Below are positions 3,001 through 61,935 of a DNA stretch of 64,000 nt, piece by piece. Source of the DNA: an uncultured bacterium (GTDB taxonomy: Bacteria > Desulfobacterota > Desulfovibrionia > Desulfovibrionales > Desulfovibrionaceae); contig CAJMLK010000002.1 in NCBI GenBank assembly GCA_905214305.1, forward strand, positions 17,163-81,162, written 5' to 3'. The notes beneath the pieces are model-generated. The model made no database searches and had not been told where the DNA came from. It saw nothing but the letters and a program-made list of their open reading frames with translations. The position numbers were made by a program, and so were the translations under genes. Numbering within the stretch: position 1 is the stretch's first letter; each line of letters starts with the position of its first letter.

Positions 3001-4618
3001 CAACACTCAGGACGGCAATGTGCATGTTGCCGGTGGCGAGTTGGGCGTATCCGCCATTGGCTATGGCATGCTTGCCGATAACAGGAGCCAGAATGCCATC
3101 ACCACCAAGGGCGGCGATGTAAGCATTACCGGCAGCGGCGACAGCGCATACGGCATGGCGGCCGCCAACGGCGGCTTCAATACCATCAAGGCCATCGGCG
3201 GCGAGGTGGACGTTACCGCCAACGGCAGCAGCAACAGTTATGGCATGGCTGCCACAGACGGCGGAATCAATCTCATACAGCCCGGCAGCGGCCCGGTGAC
3301 CGTCACCATTACCGCCACAGCGGACAGTGCCGAAAAGGCTATTGCCATGTGGGCCGATGGCGGCAACTCCGTAAACTACATCGCTGGCAGCTCCAGTGCG
3401 GACGGCCCTGGCGACAGCATCACCCTGAATGCCAACAACGGCCAGGGCATCGCCATGCAGGCTCAAAATGGCGGCCAAAACATTATCACTACCGGTGCGG
3501 GCAACGACAGTGTGACCATCAACGGTGACATCAAGGGCAGCGGCAATGAGATCAATCTGGGCCGTGGCGACAACACCCTCACCCTCAACGGTGCGGTTGA
3601 AACGGGTAGCCTCAACGTCAAGACCGAAGGCATTGGCGCCAGCGCCGGAACCTACACGCTCATACTTCAGGCGCCCGATGCCGAAAGCTTTGTCAGCCAG
3701 TATGGGGACTGGCTCAACGACATCGGCTCTGACGATCTTATTGCCGGCGGCATGAGAACCATAACCTTTGACGGACTGGACGTCGCAACCCTGCCCCCGG
3801 ATTTTCTGACGGAATTCAACGACATCCTGTGGCAACTGAACGCTGACGGCGTTGGCATTGAGCCGCAGGAGCTTGTCGACCAGTTGCACGACCCCGCCAA
3901 TTCCTTCAGTGCTCCCCTGTCCGCAATGGCCGACGACACCGGCGTGGAGCACCATGACACGCAGGGCGCTCAGGACGCGCAGCATGCCGCCGGGCACGAC
4001 GACGTGCAGGATTCGCTGCTGGCCTCTCATGGCGGCCCGGCCGCGGTGGCCGATGACGGCGCCCATGCCGCCTTCAGCGCACATGGCGACGCGGCCGCAC
4101 ATGAAGACGTTGCTGGCGCGGACGCCCCCGCACCGGTGAACTTCAGCGGAGAAACAGACGAGCCGACGCAGCCGCTTTTCGCCTCCCTGAGCGACCACAG
4201 CGCGGACACGTCCGCAGACATGCTCACAGACATGTCCCATGAGGGCGGGGACGATACCCTGCACAGCGGCTATCTCAGCAACGATACCGGCGACAATGGC
4301 GCTCTTGCCGATCTTCATGCCTCCATCACTCTGGCCTATGGCGATGAGGGCTTTGACGCCCTGTTTGCGGCAACCACCGCGCAGGCTGCCGAAGATGGGA
4401 CCGACCTCTTCGAAGGGACCGACCTGAACACCGTGGCGCTGACCGACATGAATGCGGCCCTTGGTCAGCATCCCCTTGCCGATGCGGCCCCTGATGCTCC
4501 TGCCGCAACGATGGAAAGCATGGTCATTGCCACGAGCGAAGTCAGCATTGCGCCCACCGTGATGGACTCCTGCCAGGAAAGTTCCGACAATGCCGCAAGG
4601 GAAATCGCAGGCAGCTAG
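2..4618 (+). CDS. giant secreted repeat protein (beta-helix/adhesin-like), 5' truncated by window edge
   Basis: Frame +2 is open from base 2 with no stop before the first Met at 137. About 45 tandem ~30-aa degenerate repeats of the form N-x-I-T-x-x-x-G-x-V-x-V-T-A...(Y)GM, rich in G/S/T/N/V. The last ~350 aa are acidic, disordered and D/A/H-rich. Stop TAG at 4616-4618. Confidence 0.7.
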   Translation, partial: LGFAPAAAGGDGGPGDGGSVPEADASYHTRLIVTGAENSFFSFYAVDQDGNLVTDSSRIGDIEFQGDNTYFSFVEVATDGSIVVELTPAGLAALEDGTLASDMLLISVDGTTYKMPLLVAGGAAGQNYDAATEEERAQLGTDLKAEWYSTDSKTVAEDKITLGGSSYNQVDIDKPNPSNGLNSIGVLNSDIDIAASDRGEVNITANHDAGSAYGLATDDSGSASSSIQGGYESSINITAYANDPSATAYGVFTGANRSSTAATSIEGGNVSIAAQSTGVGSYGVHAGNNSTNTIDAIGRVDIQARGNNATGVFAENHIPDGHSTNIITGSEVSITAQTLQTGDTYGMYSNAGLNQVTADTQVSVSADNKGTGTAWGMYANSDSSTTDAVNNEITGQDITVTATAAKGDAYAMYASSDEKSTAGNILHLEGGTADISATSNSATGGYSAHAMQASDAPDGHNSITGSGTVNIAATSTAKTAIGMSAAAGSNSISLTEGDVNIDARNTGTSTRDSATGMSANSGENSVDVGNGNVTVNATGGGTAEGIYAFGGVNTIKADGDVDVNTSGSSYAEGMFATSSGKNTITVEYGNVTLNTNADYVATGVGAYASSANVIDTGSGDVNVSTNSAYSDAQGVNAAGSGSNTITSEGGNITVTANGYMTGDAVRAASSGNNTITTKDGDVNITGNASRAASGLNASTSGTNVINAENGDVNISAHSVYTDGKGMSAESGGSNTINADNGNVTISGSGAQLSYGMYSAFSSSNIINAGGDVTVMGDSSNDSGGMAAITSGSRNLINADGNVDVTGSSSGVYAGSYAQSTIHAGGNVNVTVEGRGGSGTALGVSSSDHATNLIETGSGHVTVTATGSTSNTATAMSAINDADTVINTKTGNVTLTSSDYGMSSETSGKNIITTNSGTVNITADSSLDGYGMYAATSGYNNITAGNDVTVTASGSNSSQGMATESGSNIIDISATGNVIVTADGSGTAYGMRSSGAGGNTINTQDGNVHVAGGELGVSAIGYGMLADNRSQNAITTKGGDVSITGSGDSAYGMAAANGGFNTIKAIGGEVDVTANGSSNSYGMAATDGGINLIQPGSGPVTVTITATADSAEKAIAMWADGGNSVNYIAGSSSADGPGDSITLNANNGQGIAMQAQNGGQNIITTGAGNDSVTINGDIKGSGNEINLGRGDNTLTLNGAVETGSLNVKTEGIGASAGTYTLILQAPDAESFVSQYGDWLNDIGSDDLIAGGMRTITFDGLDVATLPPDFLTEFNDILWQLNADGVGIEPQELVDQLHDPANSFSAPLSAMADDTGVEHHDTQGAQDAQHAAGHDDVQDSLLASHGGPAAVADDGAHAAFSAHGDAAAHEDVAGADAPAPVNFSGETDEPTQPLFASLSDHSADTSADMLTDMSHEGGDDTLHSGYLSNDTGDNGALADLHASITLAYGDEGFDALFAATTAQAAEDGTDLFEGTDLNTVALTDMNAALGQHPLADAAPDAPAATMESMVIATSEVSIAPTVMDSCQESSDNAAREIAGS

Positions 4619-4696
4619 AGCAATTAGCGAATAAAATGAGTTAACTGCTCAGCAGGGATTTTCTTGAAAATCCCTGCCGAGAAATGCTCTAGATGT
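4616..4696. repeat. MITE-like repeat, short inverted-orientation copy of the ~125-bp thiC/trkH-flanking element, with termini CTAGAGCA...TGCTCTAG
   Basis: Sequence ctagagcaattagcgaataaaatgagttaactgctcagcagggattttcttgaaaatccctgccgagaaatgctctag matches the reverse complement of 57720-57785 / 60835-60900. It begins on the stop codon of the giant gene. Confidence 0.6.
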
Positions 4697-4953
4697 AGAC
4701 GTAGATTGGAGCAGACTGGAGCAGATCAGCTTCGAGAACGTGCATTCTCAAAGCTTGAAGCACGCCCGCTTCGGCGCGCAACAATGCAAAAACAGCGCAG
4801 CTTCATCCACAAGCCCTCGGGCAACGGATGAAGCTGCGCCTGCCTTTTGGCGGTGGCGGCCTGTTCACACAGTCGCCAGAGCAGTTTCAAAATACCATGT
4901 GCTAAAGCGTGAAGGCGTTCCTTCAGGCATCAACCGGCACAAAAACCGTGCGT

Positions 4954-14613: not shown

Positions 14614-14939
14614 GGTTAACCTTCCTTTATTTTGCCCAAAAGGGCATGTTTTACTATACACGCCTGTGGAGCGGATGTCCGCTTCGGGCCAACTATAGGA
14701 AAGGCCCGCACACTTTGCAAGCATATTCGTGCAAAAATTTTAACCCGTCGGAGGATAGGAATGAAAAAAAAGATCAATCCCCCGGAAAATCTACAGGTTA
14801 AAGGAAATCTAGAGAGAAAATTTTTTTTCGCCGCACGACAAATTTTTACCCCAAATTAGCCAGTATGTGTAAGGATACAGTAAAAACAGCCTGTTATGGC
14901 GAGTCGGCTGGCGGTATAAAATTTTTCAGGGGCCATGAG

Positions 14940-14975
14940 AAAAGCCGGGGAACTGGCCCCGGCTTTTTCAGCGCA
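14940..14975. terminator. bidirectional hairpin terminator downstream of trpB
   Basis: AAAAGCCGGGGAACTGGCCCCGGCTTTTT hairpin flanked by A/T runs on both strands. Confidence 0.5.
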
Positions 14976-14994
14976 ACTTCAACGTGAAGTTGCT

Positions 14995-16206
14995 CTAGAT
15001 TTCGCCTTTTTCCATCATTTCCGCCACCTGCGCCACGTCCTTGTCGCCCCGGCCAGAAAGATTGACCAGCAGGACGGCGTCCACGGGCATGGCAGGGGCC
15101 ATTTTAACGGCATGCGCCAGCGCGTGGGAGGATTCCAGAGCCGGGATGATGCCTTCGTGGCGGGACAGGGTGAAGAAAGCTTCCAGAGCCTCCTTGTCCG
15201 TAATGCTCACGTATTCGGCTCGACCCGCGTCTTTGAGCATGGCGTGTTCCGGGCCGACAGAGGGATAGTCCAGCCCCGCGGAGATGGAGTACACCGCCCC
15301 GGCATCACCCGTTGCATCCTTGATCATGTACGAATTGAAGCCGTGCAGCACGCCCGGTTCGCCAAGGCAAAGCGATGCCGCATGCTGGCCGTAGTCCGCA
15401 CCGTGCCCGCCCGGCTCCACGCCGATGAGGCGCACATCCGCATCATTCACAAAGCCGGAAAAGATGCCGATGGCGTTTGAACCGCCGCCCACGCAGGCCA
15501 GCACCGCATCCGGCAGTTGCCCGCAGGCTTCAAGCATCTGCTTGCGTGCCTCGTTGCCCACCACCGACTGGAACTGGCGTACCATATAAGGATAGGGATG
15601 CGGCCCGACGGCGGAACCCAGCACATAAAATATGGCATCGTCCGACACCCACAGGGCAAGGGCCTCGTCCACGGCTTCCTTGAGGGTGCGCTGGCCGGAT
15701 GTGGCCGCCACAACGTCAGCCCCGAGCATGCGCATGCGGATGACGTTGAGGTGCTGGCGCTCCATGTCCACTTCGCCCATGCAGATGGTGCATTCAAGGC
15801 CCATGAGGGCTGCCGTGGCGGCTGTGGCTACGCCGTGCTGCCCAGCGCCGGTTTCAGCGATGATGCGGCTTTTGCCCATGCGCTTTGCCAGCAGGCACTG
15901 ACCAAGCGTATTGTTGATCTTGTGCGCCCCGAGGTGGTTGAGGTCTTCGCGCTTGAGCCATATCTGCGCTCCGCCCAGTTTTTGGCTCAGGTTGGCGCAG
16001 TGAAAGACCGGGCTGGGGCGTCCTGTATAATGGATGAAAAGGTCGTTGAGTTCCCGCATGAAGGCGGGGTCGGCCAGAGCCGAATTCATGGCTGCGGTCA
16101 GCTCATCCAGACGGGCCTTGACGGGTTCGGGAACAAACTGGCCGCCATAGGCGCCAAAAAAGCCCTTGCTGTCGGGCTTGTCATGGGGTGCGGAATGCTG
16201 GCTCAT
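14995..16206 (-). CDS. trpB: tryptophan synthase beta subunit
   Basis: PLP-lysine motif [21 protein letters not shown] and the N-terminus [12 protein letters not shown]. Start at 16206 with AAGGAGA RBS; 404 aa. The track ORF extends upstream without support. Confidence 0.85.
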
Positions 16207-16510
16207 GCGATCTCCTTGCTGCTGATGCTGTGTCGCCGTCATGCTACCTGACCTGCGGCAAAACGCCGTTCTGCCGTAACCCGGCGCAGCGCCGTCGTAT
16301 AGGGCGGCTTCGGGACCGGTAAGCCTGAAAAGCGCAAAGGCTGAAAAACGGTTCTCACTCTGGCGTTTTGAACACTCTGTGTCAAGGCACTTTCGTGCAT
16401 GTGCCATATGGGTTGTACGGTGGATGCCTTGTGATTTTGTGTTCTTCTTGCCGTAGCGTGCTGTTTCGCTTATGCTTGCTGTGCGCGCATTTATGCGCCA
16501 AGGAGTTGAA

Positions 16511-17314
16511 ATGCTGGATGAAAAATTTACCGGAAACGGCAAGGTAGTGCTGCTGGCCGGCGGCGGGAAAATCTATACGGACATCGCGGCGCGTTTTGTG
16601 CGCAGCGAGAGGGATCTGGAAGACATAGTGGCTTCTCCCTATTCCAAAAAGATTGTGGAGAACATTCTGTCATCAGGCCACAGGGCCGCGCTTGAATTTG
16701 ATTTTTTCATTTTCGGCCTTGAAGGCTACTCCCGCGTGACTGAGACCCAGCTTGTGCGCAAGCGTCTGGCTTCGTACCTTATCAAGTCGGGGCGGGCCGA
16801 GCTTGGCGGCAAGCGCCGCTATTCGGTGGTTTATCCGCGCGGCGTGGCGGAATTTGCGGCTCCGGTGACCTTGCCCGGCGGTGCAACGGTGAACCTGAGC
16901 GGACGCGATCTGGCCGATCTGGGCCGCCAGTGGTACGAGGCGGGGCTTGATGCGGGCCTGCCCGAAGAAGACTTGCGCTATCTCAAGCCGCAGGCCACCG
17001 AGTTCAAGGCCATTGTCGGCATGAATGCTCATGCGCTGCTGGACTGGTTTTCCATTCGCTGCTGCCGTAATGCCCAGCACGAAATCCAGCACCTTGCCTG
17101 GCAGATGCTGCGTCTGAGCCGCAAGGCAGCCCCCGACCTTTTCGCAGGGGCAGGACCCAACTGCGTACAGCTGGGGTATTGCCCGGAAAACGCCCTGCAG
17201 AACGCCCGCTGTAGAGGGCGCATCATCACCAAGGATGACGCCATGACCCTGCTGCGCTCTGCCAGAGGCACTGCGGCAGCGCCTCCGGCTCAGGATGAAT
17301 TTGCGGAAGACTAG
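16511..17314 (+). CDS. ThyX-like protein (FAD-dependent thymidylate synthase family), divergent
   Basis: [13 protein letters not shown] resembles the ThyX RHRxxSxxxxSxRY signature. AGGAG RBS before ATG at 16511; 267 aa. Confidence 0.45.
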
Positions 17315-17345
17315 GGCAATTTCACTTTGAAACTGCTCTGGCGGG
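17313..17345. repeat. palindromic intergenic repeat unit (CTAGRGCAATTTCACTTTGAAACTGCTCTGG), 'module A'
   Basis: Begins exactly on the thyX-like stop (gacTAGggcaatttc). A second degenerate copy lies at ~17500-17535. Related copies occur at 21925, 23860, 25400, 25545, 32700, 55065 and elsewhere. Confidence 0.7.
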
Positions 17346-17834
17346 TGCTGAGCAATCGCCCGCCTGCTGTCGTCACAGGCCGCCTGTCCGCCCCGCCATG
17401 CGATGGCTGCGCGTTGGGGCGTTGCTCCCGGATCGGGTGCAGAAAACCGCGCTTGCAGGGCTTACATGCGTCAGGGAAAGAGTGTACGCTTTTCCAGCGT
17501 GGCGCTGGAGCAATTTTTTTTTGAAACTGCTCTGGCGGCTGCGGTAGCGGAGGCCCGCCGCGCAGGCGCAGTTTACCCGCGCGGTTGAACGCCGGAGCGG
17601 GCGTCGTGGAAGCATTGGGAACAGATATTCTCGATGCGAAAATACTCTAAAGAATTCAGGCTTCCATCCGTTCTTCGTCGGCATGCTGCGATCTTGCATG
17701 CCGCAAGTCGTCTGCCGGCAAGCTGTCTGCCAATGTCGACATGCCCGGTGCGAAGCGCCGGGCAACAGGCAGTGTGGTCGGCCCGAAAGAGCAGGGCGCG
17801 CATTTTCTTGGGCCACTGACTGCCGGGACCAGCC

Positions 17835-19277: not shown

Positions 19278-19432
19278 TGTGCCTCCCGGGCATTGTTACA
19301 GAAAAATATTTACCTGATATAAGACGCTTTTATATCCCGCGCTTTCTGTTTGTTCAAGTGCGGCAAAAACCTTGCCATGCGTCGGCATGCAAAATATACT
19401 GAGATAGTTCGTTATCTTACCATGAGGATACT

Positions 19433-20155: not shown

Positions 20156-20386
20156 GGGATGTTCCGCCCGAGGGTGTCTTCCGGCGGCGTTGGCGCTTGA
20201 CGCGGGGCGCGCCCGAAGCTAAAGATGATCACGCTTTCTTTTGGTTCCCGCCCCGTTCCGGGGGTACTGCGCACTCCGGCGAAAAGTTCAGCCGTGGCTC
20301 TGCCGCCGCGGGACAGATCGCGGGGCAGGCTTTTCCACTGGCGTTGTGGGCGGCGGGCTTTGACGGAAACCATTTTAGGAGGTCCC

Positions 20387-21130: not shown

Positions 21131-21184
21131 CCCACAGGGGACGCTGCCGGTATACGGCCGTGTCCGTCGCATGAAGGAGGTTTC

Positions 21185-21928
21185 ATGATACGTCGTTTTG
21201 CTTTCGCCCTGCTGGTTCTGACCATGTTTTGCGGTCAGGCTCTGGCCGCTGAAAAATATGTTGTGGCTACCGACTGCACCTGGCCGCCGATGGAGCTTCT
21301 TGATGAAAACAAGCAGCCCGTGGGTTTTGACGTGGACTTCATCACTGAAGTGGGCAAGGCCGCCGGTTTTGAGGTGGACGTGCGCAATATCGCGTGGGAC
21401 GGCATTTTTGGCGGCGTAGCCACCGGCCAGTATGATATTGTCGCTGCCGCCACCACCATCACGCCCGAGCGCCAGAAGCAGTTTGATTTTTCCGACCCCT
21501 ATTATGAAGTGGCTCAGGCCGTGGTGCTCCCCGCAGGGCAGAGCATAAAGAGCCTTGAAGACCTCAAGGGCAAGAAAGTGGGCGGCCAGATCGGAACCAC
21601 GGGCGTCTTTGTGCTCCGCAAGTCCGGCGTGGCTGTGGATCTCAAGGAATATGACGACGTGGGTCTGGCAATTCAGGACATGCTCGGCGGCCGCATTGAC
21701 GCCGTGATCTGCGACGAGCCCGTTGCCATGTACTATGCCAACAAGAAGTCCGATACCGCCGGCAAGCTGAATCTTTCGTTCAAGACCGCCGAAAAGGAAT
21801 ACTACGGCTTTACCGTTCGCAAGGGCCGCAAGGACCTGGTGGAAAAGCTCAACAAGGGTATCAAGGCAGTCAAGGCGTCGGGCGTTGAGGCCCAGCTGCT
21901 TGAAAAGTGGATGGGCAAGGCCGAGTAG
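21185..21928 (+). CDS. polar amino acid ABC transporter substrate-binding protein (paralog 2)
   Basis: About 70% identical to the preceding gene (TDCTWPPMELL...ITPERQKQFDFSDPYYE). GAAGGAGG RBS. Confidence 0.8.
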   Translation: MIRRFAFALLVLTMFCGQALAAEKYVVATDCTWPPMELLDENKQPVGFDVDFITEVGKAAGFEVDVRNIAWDGIFGGVATGQYDIVAAATTITPERQKQFDFSDPYYEVAQAVVLPAGQSIKSLEDLKGKKVGGQIGTTGVFVLRKSGVAVDLKEYDDVGLAIQDMLGGRIDAVICDEPVAMYYANKKSDTAGKLNLSFKTAEKEYYGFTVRKGRKDLVEKLNKGIKAVKASGVEAQLLEKWMGKAE

Positions 21929-22152
21929 AGCAATTTCACCTGGAATTGTCTGGCGACTGCGCGAGCAGACGCCCGCCACGATGGACAGGGCGCGCAAAAG
22001 CTGCGCCGTTCAGCGCCTTCGTGAGCGTCAGATACCTTGAGGCTGCATGTCGTCAAGGGAAAAAGCTCTAGACCGGACCAGCCATTATGGTTTCATGGGA
22101 GTCCGGGCCGCGTGGCCCGGACTCCGCAGCCGTATTGATCTGAAGGATTGTG

Positions 22153-23707: not shown

Positions 23708-23973
23708 CAGGTTTGCGCTGCACGTGCGCTGACGGCTGTGTGAGCACATGTGCCATGCCCGCGCGGGCACGCACTTGCAGCCGTCATGCCGTGTTTCGTC
23801 TGCCCAGGTTCCGCCATGCCCGCGCGGGTATGCGCTTGCATCTTTGCGGCTGGCGACTGCTCACGCAGCCGCCAGAGCAATTTCAAGGTGAAACTGCTCT
23901 AAACGCATAAAAAGCCCGCCCTGTCCTTCAGCACTGTTGAATCCTCGTGGACTGCGGCGGCAGAGACCGTGGT

Positions 23974-25314: not shown

Positions 25315-25578
25315 ATTGCGGGCTTGATGCAGAGACGCAGGCCCTGTGCAAACAGCAGAAGCCCCGACTGGTCATGCCTGTCGGGGCTTCTGCTCATGCA
25401 TCTGCCAGAATAATTTCAAAAAGAAATTGTCCCGGAGCATTTTCGTATTGCGAATATCCATTCTTAATGCTTCCAAGACGCCCGTTCCGGTGTTTAACCG
25501 CGCAGGTAAACTGCGCTGACGCCTCCTCGGCGGGCGTCTGCTCACGCATCCGCCAGAGCAATTTCAAAAAGAAATTGC

Positions 25579-26526
25579 CTAATGCGCCTGACGCCCCCAG
25601 ATGCTCAGCAGCGGTCTGGCAGCCAGCAGCTGATCCAGAGGCATATTCACTTTTTGCGCCCCGGCCGCCCAGGGAGCTACCTGATATGGCTGAAAATTGA
25701 TGCGCACGCCCTGTGGAGTAAGGGTGAGGCTGGCGAAGTTTTCCGGTACGGGGTTCAGCCCCGTGCGCAGCATCTGCTCTTGCCGCATGCCGCCCAGACG
25801 TCGCGAAAGCTCGTTGTAAGACCATTCGGACATGAGGTTCAGGGCCAGATCCGGATCTTCAAAAAGGTCAACAAGACCAAGGCGCTGCCCGGTGAGCAGG
25901 CTGTAGTTGAGGGTCATGACATCAAGGTTGCCGTGCGCGCCGCCGGTGTATGTCCAGACTTCAAAGGTAATGCTCAGTCCGGCGGGGGAGGGGGCGGTAA
26001 CGCTGTAGGAGGCCCACAGTTCATAAGGCGGGCGTTCGCCGTCAAGGCTGGAGCCTGCGGAAAGACCCGCTCCGCTACAGCTCTGCTCAAAGGCGGAGGC
26101 AATGCCTGTGACCCACTGGCGGATGTCGCCGTCAATCTGCTTGCTGCCCACCGAGGGATAGCTGATGTTGATTGCAGGGCTGCCCGGCTCGTTACGAACA
26201 AGCTGGTGTTCGATGATGCCGGGCCTGCGCGCGCCGGAAATGATGGCGGCGGCGCTGTCGCGGGCGGACTGCTCCGCGGCGTTCACTCCATCGTGCCCGG
26301 CGGTTTCCGCATCGGCGGCGTGGGCCTGCGCGCCGTTTTCAGGTGCGGCATGCCCGGCGGGGTGTGCAGTTTCGCTTTCGGAGGCGAGTTCCGACACATC
26401 GGCAAGGGCTGTAAATTCTTGTGAAAGGGCGGGGGATGACGCCTGCTGGTCCGGCATGCGGGCCGCTTCGGCCGCTCTTTCTCCAAGCAGCAACACCAAG
26501 AGCAGAAGAGACAAAAGGCGCGGCAT
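25579..26526 (-). CDS. DUF3298/DUF4163 domain protein (RsiV-like), secreted
   Basis: Signal peptide MPRLLSLLLLVLLL. C-terminal ...TFEVWTYTGGAHGNLDVMTLNYSL... matches the DUF3298 signature. Confidence 0.55.
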   Translation of the reverse strand: MPRLLSLLLLVLLLGERAAEAARMPDQQASSPALSQEFTALADVSELASESETAHPAGHAAPENGAQAHAADAETAGHDGVNAAEQSARDSAAAIISGARRPGIIEHQLVRNEPGSPAINISYPSVGSKQIDGDIRQWVTGIASAFEQSCSGAGLSAGSSLDGERPPYELWASYSVTAPSPAGLSITFEVWTYTGGAHGNLDVMTLNYSLLTGQRLGLVDLFEDPDLALNLMSEWSYNELSRRLGGMRQEQMLRTGLNPVPENFASLTLTPQGVRINFQPYQVAPWAAGAQKVNMPLDQLLAARPLLSIWGRQAH

Positions 26527-26673
26527 GGATATAATACCTTGATAACCAGTAAAATGTGAAGGCGAAACTGCTTGCCCGAGGTACTGTTCCATACGTGCTC
26601 CGGCCATGCGGGCCGTCGGTTCAAAAGTGCGGGCGGCGATTTTGCCCCGCCCGCAACAGTATACATGCTTTGG

Positions 26674-29513: not shown

Positions 29514-29952
29514 GCCTGACTTGCGACGTTCGCCCCCAATAGGCATCGCCGCCCGGCCGTTTCTTTGTGGACGGCCGGGCGGCGATACTTTTACGCGGGA
29601 CCGCCCTTTGCGGCCCCTGCATATGCTGGAACTGCCGGATCAGATTGCCTTTGAGAATGTATATTCTCAACGTTTACGGCACGCTCGCTTCGATGCTTGA
29701 CCGCGCAGGCAAATAGCTCTGGCATGGCGGTGTTCACGGTGTGCGGCATGTGTGGAGGCTCCGCACTTTTCGGCAAGGTCGAAAACGCCCCTTTGGCACG
29801 GTTCTGGCAACTGACAGAAAAATGGCACCCAAGTGCCGCCCCGGATGCAGACGCATGCGGGGGCTGTTTACCGGGCGTGGCATTTTGCCGGATACAGTAT
29901 CCGCCGGGCAAGAGCAGCCGCAGTGTGCGGCAGGCCCCGGCCAGGAGAAAAT

Positions 29953-30738: not shown

Positions 30739-31098
30739 GGCCACGCATCCGCGCCTGAGCCGCACAAGACCGGGGCCTCCTGACGTTCAAACTGTTCTGG
30801 CGGCTGCGGGAGCAGTGCCCCGCCGCAACAGGGCAAGCGCCGCTTCAGCCGCCCGGGGGCTTACGGATGCTTCAGGCCCTGTAACACAGGAAACTGCGCC
30901 TGCAGGCTGCATGTGTAATGATCGGCAGTGTCCACACGGTTATCGCCATTCGTGCGTACAGGCCCGGTCAGGCAGATCAAAAGCCCCTTCGGGGGCTTTT
31001 TTATGGCCTGAATGGCCGCAGGCGGAATGATGCGGCTTGCCTGAGCGGGCTTTTTTTGAGAAGTATCAGGGCCTGAACGAACAGCAAAGGAAACTCTC

Positions 31099-31689: not shown

Positions 31690-31913
31690 CTGGAAACAGC
31701 CGCGTTTTTTGCCGTACACCGCTTCTCCTGCGGTGCAGGAAAAGAACGGGGGATGCAACGAGAGCGCCTGTGCCTTTGCCGCAGCGGCCAGCGTGCGCAG
31801 CCCCCGCCCAGAGGCGCAAGCGCTGTTTATCCGCGCGGTTAAAAGCCGGAGCGGGCGTTCTGAAAGCATTGAGAATGGCTGTTTTCAATGCGCAAATGTG
31901 CTGAGCAGTCGGC

Positions 31914-32552: not shown

Positions 32553-32699
32553 GGTATACTCCCTCCGCAAGGCAGTTTGATGAACTTGCGGTTCGTAAAA
32601 ATTTTTATACCGCGTTTGACAGTGTTTGTCCACGCAGGCGCAACCATGTTGTTTCATATTGATTTAGTAATAGAAAATGCCTATTATTTGCAATTATTC

Positions 32700-32860
32700 C
32701 TTTTAGAGCAATTTCACTTTGAAATTGCTCTGGCGGCTGCGCGAGCAGACGCCCGCCGCGAAGGCGTAAGCGCAATTTATTTGCGCGGTTAAACGCCGAA
32801 GCGAGCGTGTTTTAAACTTTGAGAATGTACATTTTCAAAGTTAATCTGCCCTAGTCGCGC
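32700..32860. repeat. composite intergenic repeat (modules A-B-C-D) between a hypothetical gene and uvrA
   Basis: Sequence tagagcaatttcactttgaaattgctctggcggctgcgcgagcagacgcccgccgcg ... gcgcggttaaacgccgaagcgagcgt ... ttgagaatgtacattttcaaag. The same modules recur at 17313-17640, 21925-22060, 25395-25575, 30785-30840 and 31795-31900. Confidence 0.7.
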
Positions 32861-32917
32861 ATCCTGCGCAGCATAGCCATCTTGCCAAGCGGCCCTGCCG
32901 CGCTTACTTATGCCAGC

Positions 32918-37183: not shown

Positions 37184-37648
37184 ATGACAGCAACACAGCG
37201 TAACGCCTGCCTGGCGGACTTTTTGGAGTTCATGAACCGCAAGGGCCTGAACACCACGTCGCAACGGCGCATCATCGCCGAAGCCTTTTTTGAGCTGCCG
37301 GGCCACCACTCTCTTGAAGAGTTCTATCAGCATATCCTGCAGCGTGATCCGGGCATCGGGCAAACTACGGTATACCGTACCCTCAAGCTGCTTTGTGATG
37401 CCGGTATGGCTATGGAAATCCACTTTAGCGACGGCATCACCCGCTATGAAGTCGCCAGACCCGACAGTCATCATGACCATCTGGTCTGCCTTCAGTGCGG
37501 CAAGATTGTCGAGATATGCGATCCGCGCATTGAGACGCTGCAGCGTGAAATGGCCGAAAAATACGGTTTCAGACTGCGGGGCCATGTGCACAATCTGTAC
37601 GGCCTGTGCGAAATGTGCCGCACTCAGGCTGCCGAAGAAGACAGATAG
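37184..37648 (+). CDS. perR: Fur family transcriptional regulator, likely peroxide regulator
   Basis: HHDHLVCLQCGK...CEMC metal sites and a winged-helix N-terminus. Divergent from ahpC. Confidence 0.75.
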   Translation: MTATQRNACLADFLEFMNRKGLNTTSQRRIIAEAFFELPGHHSLEEFYQHILQRDPGIGQTTVYRTLKLLCDAGMAMEIHFSDGITRYEVARPDSHHDHLVCLQCGKIVEICDPRIETLQREMAEKYGFRLRGHVHNLYGLCEMCRTQAAEEDR

Positions 37649-38259
37649 AGCTTTTCGCCCTGAACGTGTTCTGGCGGCTGCAAGGCTGTTGCGCCGTGCA
37701 GGCGTGAGCAGCGCCTGCACAGGCCCTGTGCCGCGGGCGCGTGTTTTGCGTGCATGCTTTCACGGGCAGCCCGCTTCAGGGATGCGGGGGCGGGCGGCGA
37801 GTCATGCTTTTGCCTTGCAGTCTGCCTTTCTGCCGTAATGTACCTTGTCGACCTTGCCTGCCCAATGGATGCCTGCTGACCAATGCGTGGCCTGTGAGTG
37901 CCTGCCAACGAACGCGGGGGCGGTGACCGGCTGACAGATTGTCCCGACCGGCCATAGCCTTGCGGCGATGTTCTGGCCCCGCCATGCCTGATAGCCTCGC
38001 CATGCTTGATAGCCTTGTCTTGCCCGTGGCGCTGGCATGGGCAGGAAAGCGCCTCCCCCTTATGAGCCTGTTTTGCCGGGTCCTCAGACTTGCCTGTAGC
38101 GCGCCTGCTGCACGCCCGGCGTGCGCTGGCCTGACCTCACTTTTTCTGATTTCTCAGCATCATTCAGATTTTTATGAGCATCCCGAGGGTTTCTGGTCGC
38201 CTAGCTGTTGTCGCGCAGTGACGCTGATCCGTCAGGCAATGAAAAAGAATTTTACGAAC

Positions 38260-50170: not shown

Positions 50171-50504
50171 GCCTTGGGCAACCGGAAGGTCGCTTGCAGA
50201 ACAGTATCAACGGGCGCGCTCTGGCGCTGTTGCACGCTGCAATTGCTCTGCCGACTGCTCACGCGGCGTTCTCGCAAAGATGCCGACGCACTCTGCCTGC
50301 ACAGCTGCGCGCCGAAGCAGCCTTTGAGAGTGGATACTGCCAGTACAAAAATGCTTTGGACAGTGTCGTCACGAGCGCCTTTCCCGGCATCTCTGCGTCG
50401 AACTTCGCCTTTTATTCCGGTCGAGTACCATAAGAGTACACTCCCTGCATAAAAGGCTCGTTCTCCTTGATATACCAGGAAAATCCATCTCGTGGCGATA
50501 CTGT

Positions 50505-52298: not shown

Positions 52299-52862
52299 AT
52301 GCACAAGTACACCGCCTCTTTTCTGGGGCGCGACTGCCCCGGAGTGGTGGCCGCAGTCAGCCGTATTCTTGAAGAAAACGGCTGCAACATCGAAGAAGTG
52401 ACCCAGACCATTCTTTCCGGCGAATTTGCCGCCATTTTTGTGGTGGCCGCCCCCGATGCCCTTGATGCCCAGAACCTGCACCAGCGGCTCAGCGCCAGTC
52501 TGGCCGAGGCCAAGGTGGATCTTTCGGTGCTGGTGCGGCCCGCCATTCAGGGGCAGTGGGGCCAGACCCTGCACTGCGAACCCTTTGTGGTCACTGCCGA
52601 CGGCCCCGACAAGCCCGGTCTTATCGCTGCCATGAGCCGCGTGTTCGCCCGCCATGACGTGAATATTGAAAGCCTCAAGGCTATTCTGGGTGAGGGGGGA
52701 ACCAATCATGCCCTTTTTGTGTTTGAGGTCATGGTTCCTGATGCCGTTGACCTTGGCCGCCTGCGGCGCGAGCTTTCCTGCGAGGGGCAGAGCCGCGATC
52801 TGCGCGTGAGCGTGCAGCACAGGGATATTTTTGAGGCTGTTCACCGGGTCAGCTCTTTCTAG
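52299..52862 (+). CDS. ACT domain protein (UPF0237/GcvR-like), partner of UPF0210
   Basis: Two ACT-like halves (FLGRDCPGVVAAVSRILEENGCNIEEV; ADGPDKPGLIAAMSRVFARHDVNIESL). Start MHKYTASFLG at 52299. Confidence 0.65.
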   Translation: MHKYTASFLGRDCPGVVAAVSRILEENGCNIEEVTQTILSGEFAAIFVVAAPDALDAQNLHQRLSASLAEAKVDLSVLVRPAIQGQWGQTLHCEPFVVTADGPDKPGLIAAMSRVFARHDVNIESLKAILGEGGTNHALFVFEVMVPDAVDLGRLRRELSCEGQSRDLRVSVQHRDIFEAVHRVSSF

Positions 52863-53045
52863 AGCATCCTGACTTTGAAAAAGTGTACATGCTCCTGCGC
52901 TGCACTAAATGCAGCGCGCCGCAACGTGACGTGGATTCAGGCGAAAATCGCATTTTTCGGCTGAATGAAAGCTTTGAGATGTGAAGCATTTCAAAGCTGA
53001 TCTGCTCCAGAGCTTTTTTGCCTTGCAACCATACAGGATACCGAC

Positions 53046-54980: not shown

Positions 54981-55576
54981 TTTTGTTTGCAGCAAGTTTT
55001 TGGCACGCGATTTTTGCCTCCTGTGCGTGGGGTGGACAAGAATGGTGTTCCTGAGGTATCAGGCCAGAGCAGTTGCAAGTGGAATTGCTCTGGCGCTTGA
55101 TGGCGTGACCCGCCTGCGCGTCAGGAGGGCACGTCAGGCATGCTCCTGACCTTGCTCAGGGCTTGCTGCTGAAGACAGTGCTGCTGCCTGTCCGCACGGG
55201 CCAATGCCCGGTCGGGCGGCGTAAAATCTCGAACGTATCTTCGCACCGCTGCCGGTTCTGCCTCCCCGACATTTCTTGATGCGCCTGCCAGTGCGTCCGC
55301 ATTCAGGGCGCCTGCGCTGTCAATGATGCTTTTCGGCCTCCGATCCTCGTCTTTTCCGGCCAGCGGATTTTTTCGCTGTTGATCCCTTCCCGCTGGCTAT
55401 CGGCTTCATGCCCTTTTGTTCTTGCCGCAGCAATTCTGTCCGGCTTGACCGTCGTCTTTCATGACCCCGGCAAAAGGGTGTGTCCGCTGCTTTCACGCAT
55501 GGAAGCACGGCATGACCGCATCCCGGATAAAGCGCCGGAATGTTCCGGTGCATAACACTAAAAAGGAAAATATAAT

Positions 55577-55988: not shown

Positions 55989-56125
55989 CGGAGCCTTTAT
56001 GACATTTACGCATTGAGAATATCTATTCTCAATGCTTCCAAACGTTCAAAGAAGGATGGCGGTTCGGCACAAGGCCGGAACCGCCATCTTTTTTGTTCGT
56101 GTGGCTTCAGGGATGTTGCGGCAGG

Positions 56126-56911
56126 CTACTGCACCAGCGGGGCAAGAAAAAATTGCCAGATCAGGGTGAGCAGCAGCAGCGACAGCGAGACCATGAGAAA
56201 GCGTCGCACAGCAGCGGGCCCAACGCGGATGGCAAGGCGACTGCCAAGCCAGTTGCCCACGCAGCAGGCGGCAGCCATGGGCAGGGCCAGACTCCACAGC
56301 ACCACGCCGTTGATCATGAACACCACCACCCCCGCAAAGTTGGATGCGAGGTTCAGCACCTTGGATGTGGCGGATGCCTCCATAAGGCCCATGCGCAAGA
56401 TCCAGTGAAAGGCAAGAATCAGAAAACTGCCTGTTCCGGGACCGAAAAATCCGTCATACGCGCCAATGACAAGGCAGACCAGCGGCGTCATCAGCCACAG
56501 GCGGGGGCCGTGCATGTCGGCTTCGCTACAGGCGCGCGCGCGTTCCTTGCGGGGCATGAGGGTGGCGCACATGCCCAGGGGCAGCAGCCCCACAAGAATT
56601 TTGCCCAGCAGGGCGGGTTCGGTGTGCAGGGCCAGACGCGCTCCGGCCCAGGAGCCCATGAGGGCAAAGGCCAGACCCGTCAGGGCCACGCGCCAGAGCA
56701 CAAGACGGCTGCGGGCAAAGTTGCCCAGCGCCACGCACGTACCCAGGCAGGCGCTGAACTTGTTGGCGCCAAGGGCGGCGTGTGGCGGCACACCCGTGAG
56801 CAGGAGGGCGGGCATGGTCACGAGGCCGCCTCCACCGGCGATAGCGTCTATGAAACCACCGGCGAAAGCGGCGGCAATGCCCACCAGCAAAGGGACAAGA
56901 CCTATTTCCAC
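56126..56911 (-). CDS. sulfite exporter TauE/SafE family membrane protein
   Basis: GTG start with AAGGAG RBS. Glycine-rich TM helices (GGFIDAIAGGGGLVTMPALL) typical of TauE/SafE; about 8 TM. Confidence 0.65.
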   Translation of the reverse strand: MEIGLVPLLVGIAAAFAGGFIDAIAGGGGLVTMPALLLTGVPPHAALGANKFSACLGTCVALGNFARSRLVLWRVALTGLAFALMGSWAGARLALHTEPALLGKILVGLLPLGMCATLMPRKERARACSEADMHGPRLWLMTPLVCLVIGAYDGFFGPGTGSFLILAFHWILRMGLMEASATSKVLNLASNFAGVVVFMINGVVLWSLALPMAAACCVGNWLGSRLAIRVGPAAVRRFLMVSLSLLLLTLIWQFFLAPLVQ

Positions 56912-56912: not shown

Positions 56913-57260
56913 TTACCACTCCTTAAAGATGATCCAGGCGGCCAGCACGATGAGGGCAAAGCCCGCAACGTGGTTCCAGCGCAGGGGTTCGTGCAGCCAG
57001 AGGCTGGAAAAAACCATGAAAACCGTCAGGGAAATGACTTCCTGTATGGTTTTCAGTTCAGCAGCGGAAAAATGCCCGTAACCGATGCGGTTGGCAGGGA
57101 CCTGAAGCAGATATTCAAAAAAGGCCAGTCCCCAGCTTGCCAGAATGACCACGGGCAGGGCCGTGCCCTTGTAGCGCAAATGGCCGTACCAGGCGAAGGT
57201 CATGAATATGTTTGATGCAATCAGAAGGCCGATGGTGGCCGCGGGTACGGGTATGTTCAT
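56913..57260 (-). CDS. DUF486/DMT-like small membrane protein
   Basis: 115 aa with 4 TM. FMTFAWYGHL...LKTIQEVISLTVF matches the DUF486 family often paired with TauE-like genes. Confidence 0.55.
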   Translation of the reverse strand: MNIPVPAATIGLLIASNIFMTFAWYGHLRYKGTALPVVILASWGLAFFEYLLQVPANRIGYGHFSAAELKTIQEVISLTVFMVFSSLWLHEPLRWNHVAGFALIVLAAWIIFKEW

Positions 57261-57656
57261 GGCGTATCAGCAAGCCTTGTCTGTAGGGCGGCAGAAGCGC
57301 GCCCGGTGGTGTCGGGACAGTCCAGAGGCATACCCGCGGCCGTGCGGCGAGTCAATGACCGCCTGTAAAGCAAAAGAAAACGCCCGGTATTGTCCGGGCG
57401 CTTTCTTTTGCTTTTTGTGCGGGCTGATGTCTGCCCGGCAGGAGGACTTCCCGGCGCGGTCTTGCATGGCGACCACGCCGGAAAGGCAGATTCCAGAGCC
57501 GTCCGGGCGTGCGGCAGGCCACCGGCGGTGGCGGGAGCGGACGTCGGCCCTGAAGGCACACATCAGCTTTTGCCGCTGGCGGGCCAGTGCTGCCGGACGC
57601 CGTGCGGGCGTTGGCTGGCACTGCCGCGAAAGCAGTTTTGCCGTGAACCTGCCCTA

Positions 57657-57790
57657 GAGCATTTAACACTTGAAATGCTCGCTTACGGCAGGCAAAAGCC
57701 TGCCTTCGCGCATTTCGTGGCAAGGATTTTCAAGAAAATCCCTGCAGGGCAGTCAACTCATTTCATTCGCTAATTGCCCTAGTGATTCTG
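57657..57790. repeat. ~125-bp MITE-like element, copy 1 (direct repeat of 60776-60902)
   Basis: Sequence ctagagcatttaacacttgaaatgctcgcttacggcaggcaaaagcctgccttcgcgcatttcgtggcaaggattttcaagaaaatccctgcagggcagtcaactcatttcattcgctaattgccctag. Its end overlaps the thiC stop codon. Confidence 0.75.
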
Positions 57791-59403: not shown

Positions 59404-60777
59404 ATGGGGGGCATGCAGAGGAACAGATTTTTCAGCCCTCTTACGTGGCCCGTATTTTCCTTTCTGGCGGTTATTGTCGTGGGCGCAGTTCTGCTGCACA
59501 TGCCTGTGAGTCTGCAGGAAGGCCAGAGGCTCAGCCCCATTGATGCGGCCTTTCTCGCCACGTCGGCTGTTTGCGTTACCGGCCTGACCCCTGTGGACAT
59601 CAGCGTGGTGCTCAGCCCCGCCGGTGTGATGGTGCTGCTTTTTCTCGTGCAGCTGGGCGGCCTTGGCGTCATGACCTATACGAGCATCATTTTTTTGCTC
59701 TGGCGAAACTCCGTACCCTTCACCAGCCGTGAGGCCGTGAGTCAGGCGCTGCTTGGCGACGATTTCAACCTCAAGGGTTTTCTTTTGCAGGTGCTGGCGC
59801 TGGTATTCAGCATCGAGCTTGTCACGGCCTTGCTGCTTCATTGGCATGACCCCGTGTTTTTTCACCCCATCAGCGCGGCATTTCATGCTGTTTCGGCCTT
59901 CTGCAATGCGGGTTTTTCGCTCAGCCCCAACAGCCTCATGAATTTCAGGGATGATGTGGCGGTCAACGTCATCATCGCGGCCAGCGTCTTTTTGGGCAGC
60001 ATCGGCTTTGGCGTACTGCGCGAAGCTCTGGGCATCATTTCCGGCGGGCGCATGGGCGTTCCCGTGCGCAAGTTCAGCCGTTTCAGCCGCCTTGTGCTCA
60101 AGACAACGGTTTTTCTTATTGTGGTCGGCGCGACGGTGGGATTTGTCATCGAGTTCTGGCGGGTGGGCAACGAGCATGCGCTGGGCGACGGCTTTGATCT
60201 GGCCCTTACGGCGTTTTTTCAGGCAGCGGTGGCACGTACGGCCGGTTTTAATACCGTCAATATGAGCAGCCTGAGCGAGGCCACTCTGCTGGTGCTCATG
60301 GCGCTCATGTTCGTGGGCGGCGGCCCGGGTTCGTGCGCCGGGGGCATCAAGGTGGTGACCTTCAGGGTGCTGGTGGGCTATATTGCCGCCCAGTTCCGCG
60401 GCGACAGGCAGATCGTGCTTGAGGGCAGGGGCGTACCGGCAGAAAACGTAAGTCGCGCTCTGACCCTGTTTTTTTTCTATTCCATGCTGGTGGGGATTTC
60501 CACATTTCTGCTCAGCATTACGGAATACGGCATACTGCACGGGACCGGCGGCGAAGGGCCGTCCTTTTTGCGCATTCTGTTTGAAGAGGTTTCGGCCCTT
60601 GGCACTGTGGGGCTTTCGATGAACCTGACCCCGGAGCTGAGTGCCGAGGGCAAGGGCGTTATTATTGTAAACATGTTTGCCGGGCGCGTGGGCCTGCTGA
60701 GCCTGCTCATGGCCGTGCAGAGCCTTCAGCCGCGCAAGGCGTATACCGTGGCGGAAACGCAACTGCCCATCGGCTAG
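59404..60777 (+). CDS. trkH: Trk/Ktr-type potassium uptake membrane protein
   Basis: Repeated M-P-M units with selectivity-filter-like glycine motifs (VTGLT, NAGFS, TAGFN, GTVGLS). 457 aa. Confidence 0.8.
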   Translation: MGGMQRNRFFSPLTWPVFSFLAVIVVGAVLLHMPVSLQEGQRLSPIDAAFLATSAVCVTGLTPVDISVVLSPAGVMVLLFLVQLGGLGVMTYTSIIFLLWRNSVPFTSREAVSQALLGDDFNLKGFLLQVLALVFSIELVTALLLHWHDPVFFHPISAAFHAVSAFCNAGFSLSPNSLMNFRDDVAVNVIIAASVFLGSIGFGVLREALGIISGGRMGVPVRKFSRFSRLVLKTTVFLIVVGATVGFVIEFWRVGNEHALGDGFDLALTAFFQAAVARTAGFNTVNMSSLSEATLLVLMALMFVGGGPGSCAGGIKVVTFRVLVGYIAAQFRGDRQIVLEGRGVPAENVSRALTLFFFYSMLVGISTFLLSITEYGILHGTGGEGPSFLRILFEEVSALGTVGLSMNLTPELSAEGKGVIIVNMFAGRVGLLSLLMAVQSLQPRKAYTVAETQLPIG

Positions 60778-60902
60778 AGCATTTAACACTTGAAATGCTC
60801 GCTTACGGCAGGCAAAAGCCTGCCTTCTCGCATTTCGTGGCAAGGATTTTCAAGGAAATTCTTGCAGAGCAGTTAACTCATTTCATTCGTTAACTGCTCT
60901 GG
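60776..60902. repeat. ~125-bp MITE-like element, copy 2
   Basis: About 90% identical to 57657-57790. Begins on the trkH stop codon (ggCTAGagcattt) and ends ...taactgctctgg (inverted terminus). Confidence 0.75.
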
Positions 60903-61158
60903 TTGCCGGTTGCGAAAAGTGGCCCAGGCGCTTTTTGCAGATATGGTTGCGCTGAAAAGGGCGCTGCCTTCGGCCCGAAGGCCCGGCGGCTTTTTCGGTG
61001 TTCCCGAAACCGTTTTTTGTCCCTGACTGCAATGCTGTGCAGAGAAAGCAGCATTCGGGTTTTGCCCGGCATGCCGACGAGGTTCTGGCCTTGCCCGGTC
61101 TTTGCGGCGGAGGGGTTCCGGCGCGTGTCGCCCGGATACAGCACGGAGAAAGAAAGAG

Positions 61159-61818
61159 ATGGCTGAAAAAAAGCTGGAAATAGGCGTTATAGGTCTTGGC
61201 AAGTTTGGCCTGCGCATGGCGACCACCCTTGTTTCGCTGGGGCACACGGTGGTGGGCATTGATATGTCCGATGCGCGGGTGCAGCGGGCCGAGGATGCGC
61301 TGGAGTCTGTTTACAAGGCCGATGCCACCAATATCGCCGTGCTGCGTTCACTGCATGTGCAGGATCTGGACTGGGTGGTCATCAGCGTTGGAGAAAGCGT
61401 GGAGCAATCGCTCAGCATCACTCTCAACGTGCAGGAGCTGGGTGGCCCCAAGATATGGGTCAAGGCGTCCAATGAGGAACACCGCAAGATTTTGCAGCGC
61501 CTGCGCGTCAACCGCGCTCTGGTTCCCGAGATGGAAGCCGCCGTCATGGCCGCCCATCAGCTGACCTATCCGGGCATGCTGGACCTTATCCCCAAATACG
61601 GCGGCATCGCCATTCAGGAACTGAAGGTGGACGAATGGCACGGCAAAACGCTGGTCGAGCTTAATCTCATGCAGCGTTTCAATATTATGGTGCTGGGCAT
61701 TCGCCCCGTGGGGGAGCACTCTTTCAACTTTGTTCCCCCGGCCATGACCGTGCTGAATAAGGGCGATACCATCGTGGTGGCCGGCAGGGCCAATTCCATG
61801 AAAGACCTGAACCCCTAG
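61159..61818 (+). CDS. trkA: potassium uptake protein TrkA/KtrA (RCK N- and C-domains)
   Basis: Rossmann motif IGVIGLGKFG and a C-terminal TrkA_C domain. Start MAEKKLEIG. Stop TAG embedded in a diverged MITE copy. Confidence 0.8.
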   Translation: MAEKKLEIGVIGLGKFGLRMATTLVSLGHTVVGIDMSDARVQRAEDALESVYKADATNIAVLRSLHVQDLDWVVISVGESVEQSLSITLNVQELGGPKIWVKASNEEHRKILQRLRVNRALVPEMEAAVMAAHQLTYPGMLDLIPKYGGIAIQELKVDEWHGKTLVELNLMQRFNIMVLGIRPVGEHSFNFVPPAMTVLNKGDTIVVAGRANSMKDLNP

Positions 61819-61935
61819 AGCTTTTGACACTTGCAATGCGAGCAGGCGGGCTTTTGCCTGCCTGCCTGTAGCTCATGGCGGGGATTTTTCTGAAAATTCC
61901 TGCAAACAGGCAAGCCGTTTCACGCGTAAACACCC
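61805..61935. repeat. diverged copy of the ~125-bp element
   Basis: ctagagcttttgacacttgcaatgcgagcaggcgggcttttgcctgcctgcc...gggatttttctgaaaattcctgcaaacagg parallels ctagagcatttaacacttgaaatgctcgc..aggcaaaagcctgcc...aaggattttcaagaaaatccctgca. Confidence 0.6.

Follow-up and report, generated by a model that had tools for sequence, protein, structure and literature searches.

A family of miniature inverted-repeat elements found at stop codons of Desulfovibrio genes

Introduction

[quoted passage not shown] RUP of Streptococcus pneumoniae, a MITE of about 107 nt, is believed to owe its movement to an IS630-family transposase that acts in trans (PMC2229807; PMC2170065), and it sets a precedent for the trans-mobilisation of a MITE by an IS630-type insertion sequence (IS). 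Duplication of TA is a mark of IS630 and the Tc1/mariner/IS630 family, and CTAG is the preferred site of IS630 (PMC2170065, with its reference Tenzen and Ohtsubo 1991). Here a repeat family with all of the above MITE features is described from a 64-kb stretch of DNA of an uncultured member of the Desulfovibrionaceae (assembly GCA_905214305.1, contig CAJMLK010000002.1, positions 17,163 to 81,162; hereafter the window), with a G+C content of about 59%.

The repeats are most simply understood as a mobile, non-coding MITE family, one more case of selfish DNA of a familiar kind, with two subfamilies that insert at TA in a Y-TA-R context (Y, pyrimidine; R, purine) and that come to lie at stop codons through the rarity of this target and through termini that begin with G. 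The probability of this reading is put at roughly 0.85. A full-text literature search found no paper describing MITEs in Desulfovibrio.

Anatomy and extent of the repeat family

A preliminary description of the window had reported a 12-bp palindrome as a repeat form of its own, together with longer elements at 4616, 57657, 60776 and 61805 that share inverted termini, and had proposed a MITE-like, genome-specific family. The palindrome, AGAGCAATTTCA-ctt-TGAAATTGCTCT, was located at 32705-32731, and matches were found at or near every coordinate listed for it and its variants. Its half-site, with up to two mismatches allowed, is matched 16 times in the window; 100 dinucleotide-preserving shuffles gave 4.9 +/- 2.3 matches, and none of them reached 16. 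It is not a separate form, however, but the head hairpin of an element of about 150 nt that ends AATCTGCTC-TA: repeat finding and iterated nhmmer searches showed that the palindrome and the modules GCTGCGCGAGCAGACGCCCGCC, GCGCGGTTAAACGCC..GAGCGGGCGT and TTGAGAATGTACATTCTCAA follow each other in constant order and make up one element. This element is subfamily A; the longer elements do share their inverted termini and form a second, related subfamily, B, of about 127 nt. Both carry inverted termini of about 22 nt, TA-GAGCAnnTTnAC... Subfamily A also has longer variants of about 195, 320 and 470 nt, in which the ends are unchanged and internal segments differ (the window copies at 4717-4903 and 30783-30960 fall in these size classes), and subfamily B has a short form of 78 nt. 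On visual inspection, the A consensus meets a stop within 0, 5 and 28 codons in its three forward frames, and the elements are too short to code for a transposase. The window holds 23 copies or fragments (Table 1), amounting to about 2.4 kb or 3.7% of its 64 kb; a tRNA scan found no tRNA genes in it.

The family extends well beyond this genome. When the junction of the first two modules was scanned in one genome per GTDB species, at least 73 stretches were found, and all matches listed were from Desulfovibrio. Most came from the fragmented assembly of Desulfovibrio sp. 1188_IL3213 (hereafter sp. 1188), whose contigs often stop within the repeat, and the rest from MES5, Dsv1 and three metagenome-assembled genomes (MAGs). 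The window and 73 of these genome loci together yielded 194 matches to subfamily A, 59 of them full length, and at least seven Desulfovibrio lineages carry the family, so that it is not genome-specific. The A copies in the window are decayed, while those of sp. 1188 are nearly identical to one another, and more than 40 such copies scoring at least 160 bits indicate a recent burst in that genome. Two matches on viral contigs are ordinary MITE copies. A copy on a prophage-like IMG/VR contig (L107, 4351-4492) is a variant of A in which TTGAAATTGAATAATTTCAA replaces the M4 palindrome TTGAGAATGTACATTCTCAA on both arms, a clear compensatory swap.

Element ends and the duplicated TA

Alignment of full-length copies with their flanks set the boundaries of subfamily A at Y-TA-GAGCAATTTCAC ... 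AAAGTTAATCTGCTC-TA-R, and those of subfamily B show the same architecture, Y-TA-GAGCATTTAACAC ... GTTAACTGCTC-TA-R. The four termini (A-left GAGCAATTTCACTTTGAAATTG, A-right GAGCAGATTAACTTTGAGAATG, B-left GAGCATTTAACACTTGAAATG and B-right GAGCAGTTAACGAATGAAATG) have about 22 nt in common, GAGCAnnTTnACnnTGAAATG, and therefore one enzyme could serve both subfamilies. The palindrome of A is its left terminus paired with an inverted subterminal copy of itself, and both ends of B are built likewise.

Across 155 ends of the form TA-G, the base at -1 is C or T at 73 of 80 left ends and 67 of 74 right ends, and the flanks beyond Y-TA and TA-R are random. Because the flanking bases on the left and right vary independently (C/C 14, T/C 10, T/T 7, C/T 6), only the TA is duplicated and not a 4-bp YTAR, which rules out a duplication of the IS5-like kind. 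Of the 155 ends, 24 share their TA with an adjoining element.

In every A head (for example at 32729-32732) the terminus has an inverted internal copy that reads CTGG, never CTAG, and CCAG is also seen at 55066-55091. A change of CTAG to CCAG or CTGG is of the type that very-short-patch (Vsr) repair makes in E. coli; alternatively, these forms could have come from hairpin-templated repair that extended the stem.

Filled and empty sites between and within species

The comparison of orthologous intergenic regions suggested in the preliminary description yielded clean pairs of filled and empty sites with TA duplication at the stops of lepA and cydB. The window is about 94% identical to sp. 1188 across their overlap. 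At the lepA stop, in the convergent lepA-cydB spacer, sp. 1188 reads GAC-TA-(A element)-TA-AGGCTGAGAAGG and the window's species GAC-TA-GGCCTGAGAAGG; in another excerpt of this site the right flanks read TA-AGGCTGAG (sp. 1188, filled) and TA-GGCCTGAG (window's species, empty). The sequence at the cydB stop is GGCCT-TA-(A element)-TA-ATAGGCG in sp. 1188 and GGCCC-TA-ATAGGCG in the window's species. In both cases the flanks match closely, with a single TA when the site is empty and a TA at each end when it is filled. Both insertions lie within the TA of a TAG stop, and the duplicated TA followed by the first G of the element leaves the stop as TAG. The same spacer holds a B element in the window's species and none in sp. 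1188.

Other stop codons show a similar history of lineage-specific occupation. The trkH stop carries a forward B element in the window (60775-60902) and a reversed A element in sp. 1188 (L033, 1338-1488), with the same flanks, and is empty in D. desulfuricans, L117 and L119; this dual occupancy of one TA implies that a hotspot was hit twice independently or that one element replaced the other by way of the termini that they share. The trkA stop, with a B element in the window's species, is likewise empty in D. desulfuricans, L117 and L119. At the rubrerythrin stop a B element is present only in the window's lineage, with none in D. desulfuricans and two other lineages. The copy at the stop of the ACT-domain gene is old and common to four lineages, including D. 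desulfuricans, which may also retain a remnant at the thiC stop.

Within the window's species, comparison was made with human-gut metagenome and MAG contigs that encode exactly the window's ABC ATPase, TrkH and glycosyltransferase. Every element lay at the same place in at least 10 such contigs of about 99% identity, so that no insertion polymorphism was found among them, and the only differences were microhomology deletions, at 31790 and 57440-57555. The latter is a 115-nt indel polymorphism among strains, between GTC(T/G)GCCC microhomologies.

Why the elements lie at stop codons

The preliminary description had stated that the leading CTAG or TAG nearly always supplies or overlaps the stop codon of the adjacent gene, in either orientation, and had suggested insertion targeted at stop codons. 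Checked against Pfam-supported genes or gene calls on near-identical contigs, every overlap that it named stood (the giant repeat protein, thyX, the SBP_bac_3 paralog, the ACT-domain gene, thiC, trkH and trkA), and three more were found (a PALP enzyme gene, a DUF3298 gene and fur). "Nearly always" overstates the case, as about 10 of some 21 element clusters in the window overlap a stop. Ten of 46 curated genes in the window take their stop codon from an element end.

A frame test established that this association is in-frame. At 127 ends of subfamily A that face unique DNA, open reading frames (ORFs) of at least 200 codons end exactly in the TAG of the element in 29 cases, against 2 and 3 for the two remaining frames (p = 6e-10); when ORFs of 80 codons or more are admitted, 46 ends compare with 14 and 22. 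Stop-supplying ends are left ends in 22 cases and right ends in 26, so there is no orientation bias, and insertion in either orientation is borne out.

The specificity is nevertheless for TA in Y-TA-R and not for stop codons as such, because the pyrimidine at -1 is as strong at ends that supply no stop (64 of 70) as at ends that do (41 of 46). Such targets are scarce. The window contains 20 CTAG, 14 TTAG, 12 CTAA and 42 TTAA, and 86-151 of each of the other twelve NTAN tetranucleotides, making YTAR 3- to 10-fold rarer than each of the others over the whole window. This scarcity is explicable by the genetic code together with the bias toward G+C at third codon positions (GC3): TAR within YTAR is an in-frame stop on both strands, while the other NTAN classes can hold a tyrosine codon on one strand, and in GC3-rich genes most TA dinucleotides are tyrosine codons. 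By class, the YTAR sites of the window comprise 26 that are genic, 23 in free intergenic DNA, 18 within stop codons and 21 that lie in or at elements; stop codons make up roughly a third of the non-genic sites. That the elements land on stop codons was rightly seen; a targeting of stops as such does not hold. Statistics on stops from greedy ORF calls proved unreliable, as wrong-strand ORFs were chosen, and the frame test and the curated window table are preferred.

The stop bias appears to be largely explained by the target motif, by selective removal of insertions in genes, and by termini whose first G makes insertion at a stop silent. A contribution of the last is suggested by one case, the ABC ATPase gene, which ends in TAA in the window, whereas in sp. 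1188 its stop is TAG and an intact A element follows. The 46 curated genes of the window end in TAG (30), TAA (10) or TGA (6), with 10 of the TAGs coming from element ends. The orthologous genes of D. desulfuricans and L119 also favour Y-TAG stops. The TAG majority may be a property of the clade or a legacy of past insertions.

A more tentative idea, which is possible but on balance doubtful, is that the family has adapted to stop codons as safe harbours. Its G-first termini would silently rebuild TAG at TAA or TAG stops, giving it a large neutral niche in GC-rich genomes, in which YTAR hardly occurs outside stop codons and spacers, with conversion of TAA to TAG as a by-product. If this were true, repeated insertion and decay could help to explain the TAG majority (30 of 46). 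A weaker strand of the same idea is that the Correia-like terminal TAnAGnnGATTAAC might reflect a related transposase.

Secondary structure

The elements fold better than shuffled sequences, with z = -6.6 and -7.6 for the two strands of subfamily A and z = -5.3 for subfamily B. Five hairpins are kept across 22 diverged copies, in which 85.6% of cells are paired, against 35-47% when the partners are slid; both sides have changed in 18 of 42 pairs, which none of 500 shuffles reached, although the sequences share ancestry and the structure used was drawn from the consensus.

The preliminary description had also proposed that the elements double as terminators. No element module takes the form of a G+C-rich hairpin followed by a run of T, and stop-supplying ends are equally common in the two orientations, so this proposal fails. 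Among 33 terminator-like sites in 14000-33500, none is formed by a module hairpin; one of them, at 17492-17510, runs into the head of the copy at 17506, which is decayed and rich in T. Searches of Rfam gave no matches at the gathering score, and E-value mode returned only chance-level matches to microRNAs and CrfA.

A model of insertion and the alternatives to it

It may be envisaged that a DDE transposase supplied in trans binds the termini and cuts the element out, and that this cut-and-paste movement ends with insertion at TA in a Y-TA-R context and duplication of the TA. Since both termini begin with G, insertion in a TAA or TAG stop would rebuild an in-frame TAG in either orientation and leave the protein unchanged. 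In a genome of about 59% G+C, with YTAR almost absent from coding DNA, stop codons would make up a sizeable part of the sites at which insertion does no harm, and selection would remove copies that land within genes. By analogy with described TA-duplicating elements, the driver is most likely of the IS630/Tc1-mariner type.

The same MITE could in principle be driven by an IS5-family (IS427/ISL2-like) or PIF/Harbinger-like DDE transposase. IS5-family ends often begin with GAG or GGA, and some subgroups target YTAR or TNA; the termini described here begin with GAGCA and the target context is Y-TA-R. The duplication, however, is a 2-bp TA and not the 3-bp TNA or 4-bp YTAR usual in those subgroups, the left Y and right R are independent, there is one TA at each empty site, and nothing IS5-like was seen, so that such a driver is unlikely. 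Further removed is the idea that these repeats are no transposon with TIRs and target duplication, but a REP/BIME-like mosaic spread on single-stranded hairpins by a single-copy HUH transposase of the RAYT or IS200-IS605 type. Each element is indeed a string of hairpins, of which each terminus forms part, and the hairpins have been kept by compensatory changes. Modules recombine, as in the joining of a B head to an A tail at 61816-61988, solo hairpins occur at 14970 and 55066, 24 of 155 ends abut another element, and no IS partner was found. HUH elements, though, insert 3' of an asymmetric tetra- or pentanucleotide without duplication, whereas the two ends here are inverted copies of one sequence of about 22 nt, the Y-TA-R target is symmetric, TA is duplicated at clean filled and empty sites, insertions occur in both orientations, and the termini read TA-GAGCA with no GTAG-type REP head. 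Inverted ends, a symmetric target and duplication of the TA make a REP/RAYT-type mechanism unlikely, and it is held to be less probable than an IS5-type driver.

The least probable account, by a small step, is that host selection has maintained an RNA element of 3' untranslated regions (UTRs), whether a terminator, an mRNA stabiliser or a small RNA family, and that the repeats are not selfish mobile DNA. Both strands of A and also B fold far better than shuffles, the conserved hairpins have 18 of 42 pairs changed on both sides, and many copies right after stops would be co-transcribed. Against this, orientation to the upstream gene is unbiased (22 and 26), copies also occur in promoter regions (as at 32704-32853, near uvrA), neither a hairpin followed by a T run nor an Rfam match was found, presence and absence differ between close species with TA duplication, and the copies decay freely in the window's species. 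A secondary effect of the elements on mRNA 3' ends is possible.

Several observations weigh against a TA-inserting MITE family moved by an IS630-type enzyme, or sit uneasily with parts of that account. Maintenance of the hairpins by compensatory changes is not required by a DDE mechanism, and they may have a further role; the palindromes must still matter to something, be it propagation, hairpin-templated repair or a secondary effect at mRNA 3' ends. Stops are occupied at 10 of about 21 clusters, which is not significantly enriched over the approximately 35% expected from the supply of YTAR, and a cruder test of stop enrichment, set aside for its poor gene calls, gave p = 0.5. A quarter of the left ends (33) read CCAG rather than YTAG. 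In the window's species the copies are fixed and decaying, with no current movement there, since they hold the same positions in all contigs and differ only by microhomology deletions. The IS630 assignment is drawn from the TA/YTAR target, and neither an autonomous element nor a transposase with such termini turned up in about 0.7 Mb of fetched loci or in plasmids, for which a blastn search found nothing. The fetched loci also held no repeats of 350 nt or more and no head of subfamily A followed by a long transposase-like ORF.

One transposase gene was encountered close to the sites studied. In the window's species, an IS256-family gene (Transposase_mut; L121, 6392-7582) replaces the TetR and SMR genes that lie upstream of lepA in D. 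desulfuricans. IS256-family elements make duplications of 8-9 bp, and this transposase was rejected as a driver, being unrelated to the element.

Copies in the window and neighbouring features

Table 1. Copies and fragments of the repeat family in the window, with the genes that they adjoin. M1 to M4, hairpin modules.
Positions	Strand	Element	Gene context and remarks
4616..4693	-	B, short 78-nt form, CTAG...CTAG	TAG 4616-4618 is the stop of the giant repeat protein gene (137-4618, +)
4717..4903	-	A, intermediate size, about 40 nt of extra internal sequence, decayed ends	Between giant protein gene and purC; off stop
14970..14997	.	Solo head hairpin, AGCGCAACTTCA-acg-TGAAGTTGCTC-TA	TA(G) 14995-14997 is the stop of a minus-strand PALP enzyme gene
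17312..17364	+	A head fragment, hairpins M1 and M2	TAG 17312-17314 is the thyX stop
17506..17650	+	A, full length, decayed; left TA changed to TG, right end CTC-TA-A	Off stop
21926..22071	+	A, full length, decayed	Second SBP_bac_3 paralog has its stop at TAG 21926-21928; orthologous copy in sp. 1188 (L001, 3285-3430)
23710..23754	+	A head remnant, very weak	Directly follows the ABC ATPase gene, whose stop is TAA (23705-23707)
23820..23902	-	Part of A head, model positions 2-87	Upstream of mnmA; off stop
25384..25432	-	A head fragment	Adjoins the copy at 25435..25581
25435..25581	-	A, full length	Reverse-strand TAG 25579-25581 is the stop of a DUF3298/PdaC-like gene
29638..29725	-	A tail fragment, M3 and M4	
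30783..30960	+	Decayed long (about 320 nt) A variant: head and long-variant interior	
31789..31901	+	Part of A tail, head missing	76-nt head kept in strains L074 and L076, deleted here between GGCCAGCG microhomologies
32704..32853	+	Best-preserved A (172 bits), T-TA-GAGCAATTTCAC...AATCTGCCC-TA-G	Divergent promoter region upstream of uvrA; off stop
37646..37710	+	A head fragment	TAG 37646-37648 is the stop of a fur-family gene
50223..50355	+	A, decayed	Between a macB-like gene and lysS
52860..53009	+	A, old and decayed; right-hand TA changed to CA	TAG 52860-52862 is the stop of the ACT-domain gene
55066..55103	+	Solo head hairpin with CCAG...CTGG ends, and M2 remnant	
56011..56164	-	A, decayed, with inserted G+C-rich hairpin	Between DUF1090 and tauE genes
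57655..57781	+	B, full length, C-TA-GAGCATTTAACAC...TAATTGCCC-TA-G	Right TA lies in the thiC stop (57779-57781, minus strand)
60775..60902	+	B, full length	TAG 60775-60777 is the trkH stop
61816..61939	+	B, decayed	TAG 61816-61818 is the trkA stop
61940..61988	+	A tail fragment, GGAGAACATGCATTCTCGA...AATCTGGTC-TA-A	Adjoins the B copy at 61816..61939

Some neighbouring features deserve mention. The giant protein gene at 137-4618 (1680 aa in a related contig) consists of degenerate tandem units of about 90 nt (30 aa), GGCxxCAAyACCATCAyC...GGCAATGTGAC, and has no Pfam match on record. The genes at 20387-21130 and 21185-21928 are tandem paralogs of the amino-acid-binding SBP_bac_3 type with about 80% DNA identity, and an element lies at the stop of the second only. 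The ORF at 57202-57657, predicted by one gene caller only, takes its "stop" from the left end of a B element and is probably not a gene. An unrelated second repeat was seen in related genomes, a G+C-rich hairpin GGGGGAGGGACCCTTTTnnAAAAGGGTCCCTCCCCCAC that is often followed by AAAGCATTTCAAA (L045, 842-869 and 6387-6410; L117, 5742, 11514 and 12576; L121, 15411; L007, 1780; L118, 4200); it was not found in the window with up to three mismatches allowed.

Significance

With these elements Desulfovibrio, a genus of sulfate reducers of the human gut, gains a MITE family that is well documented and high in copy number. They offer a simple, testable account of repeats that supply stop codons, built on TA/YTAR targeting, a rarity of YTAR imposed by the genetic code, and termini that begin with G. 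The elements have practical consequences as well: they fragment short-read assemblies, as shown by the sp. 1188 contigs that end in them, and they create spurious ORFs and can mislead the annotation of 3' ends. About a fifth of the window's genes also receive stable 3'-UTR hairpins from them. As insertion markers they differ between closely related species, but not between the examined strains of the window's species. The family further offers a starting point in the search for the enzyme that moves Correia-like TA-MITEs, their transposase.

Comparison with known systems

The MITE-like reading of the preliminary description agrees with the TIRs of about 22 nt, TA flanks, size classes, many copies, and filled and empty orthologous sites reported above, and the closest comparison is with the Correia elements (NEMIS, CREE) of Neisseria. 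Both families have a length near 150 nt (about 155 nt in Correia elements), are non-coding, have TA termini with TA duplication and long inverted termini, lie mostly in intergenic DNA, reach hundreds of copies in several size variants, and have no known transposase (PMC2229807). The Correia terminus TAnAGnnGATTAAC is identical at 11 of 16 positions to the right end of subfamily A, at one end only, and an internal GAGAA..TTCTC palindrome is present in both when real Correia copies are compared. Alignment of the whole elements is not significant, as 76 of 500 shuffles score at least as high, and no homology to Correia elements is claimed from these sequences. Membership of the Correia/CREE family, marked by a 26-bp repeat TATAGTGGATTAAC... 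at both ends and by a conserved core, was rejected on these same figures. The two families differ in host phylum and also in their effect on stops: Correia termini start TA-T, so that insertion at a stop would give TAT and readthrough, whereas the TA-G of the Desulfovibrio elements restores TAG.

With RUP and IS630-Spn1, IS630 and ISY100, the family has in common a TA target and a 2-bp TA duplication, a likeness drawn from their descriptions. The CTAG in which IS630 prefers its TA (PMC2170065) is a member of the YTAR class seen here. RUP has a known partner IS with matching termini, and here none was found. The REP/BIME repeats, associated with RAYT proteins, resemble the present family in being mosaics of palindromic units that cluster, abut head to tail and lie very densely in intergenic DNA, but have a GTAG head and no TIRs or target-site duplications, whereas the elements here are units of about 127-150 nt with TA duplication. 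Assignment to REP/BIME, which are imperfect palindromes of 20-40 nt with a GTAG head and no duplication, was rejected given the TA-GAGCA termini and the duplicated TA. ERIC (IRU) and other enterobacterial MITEs are likewise about 127 nt long; they have TA at the termini, fold stably as RNA and are often co-transcribed in 3' regions (PMC2229807). ERIC differs in its short 7-bp TIRs and in being ancient and largely immobile, while the Desulfovibrio family has TIRs of about 22 nt and demonstrable lineage-specific insertions.

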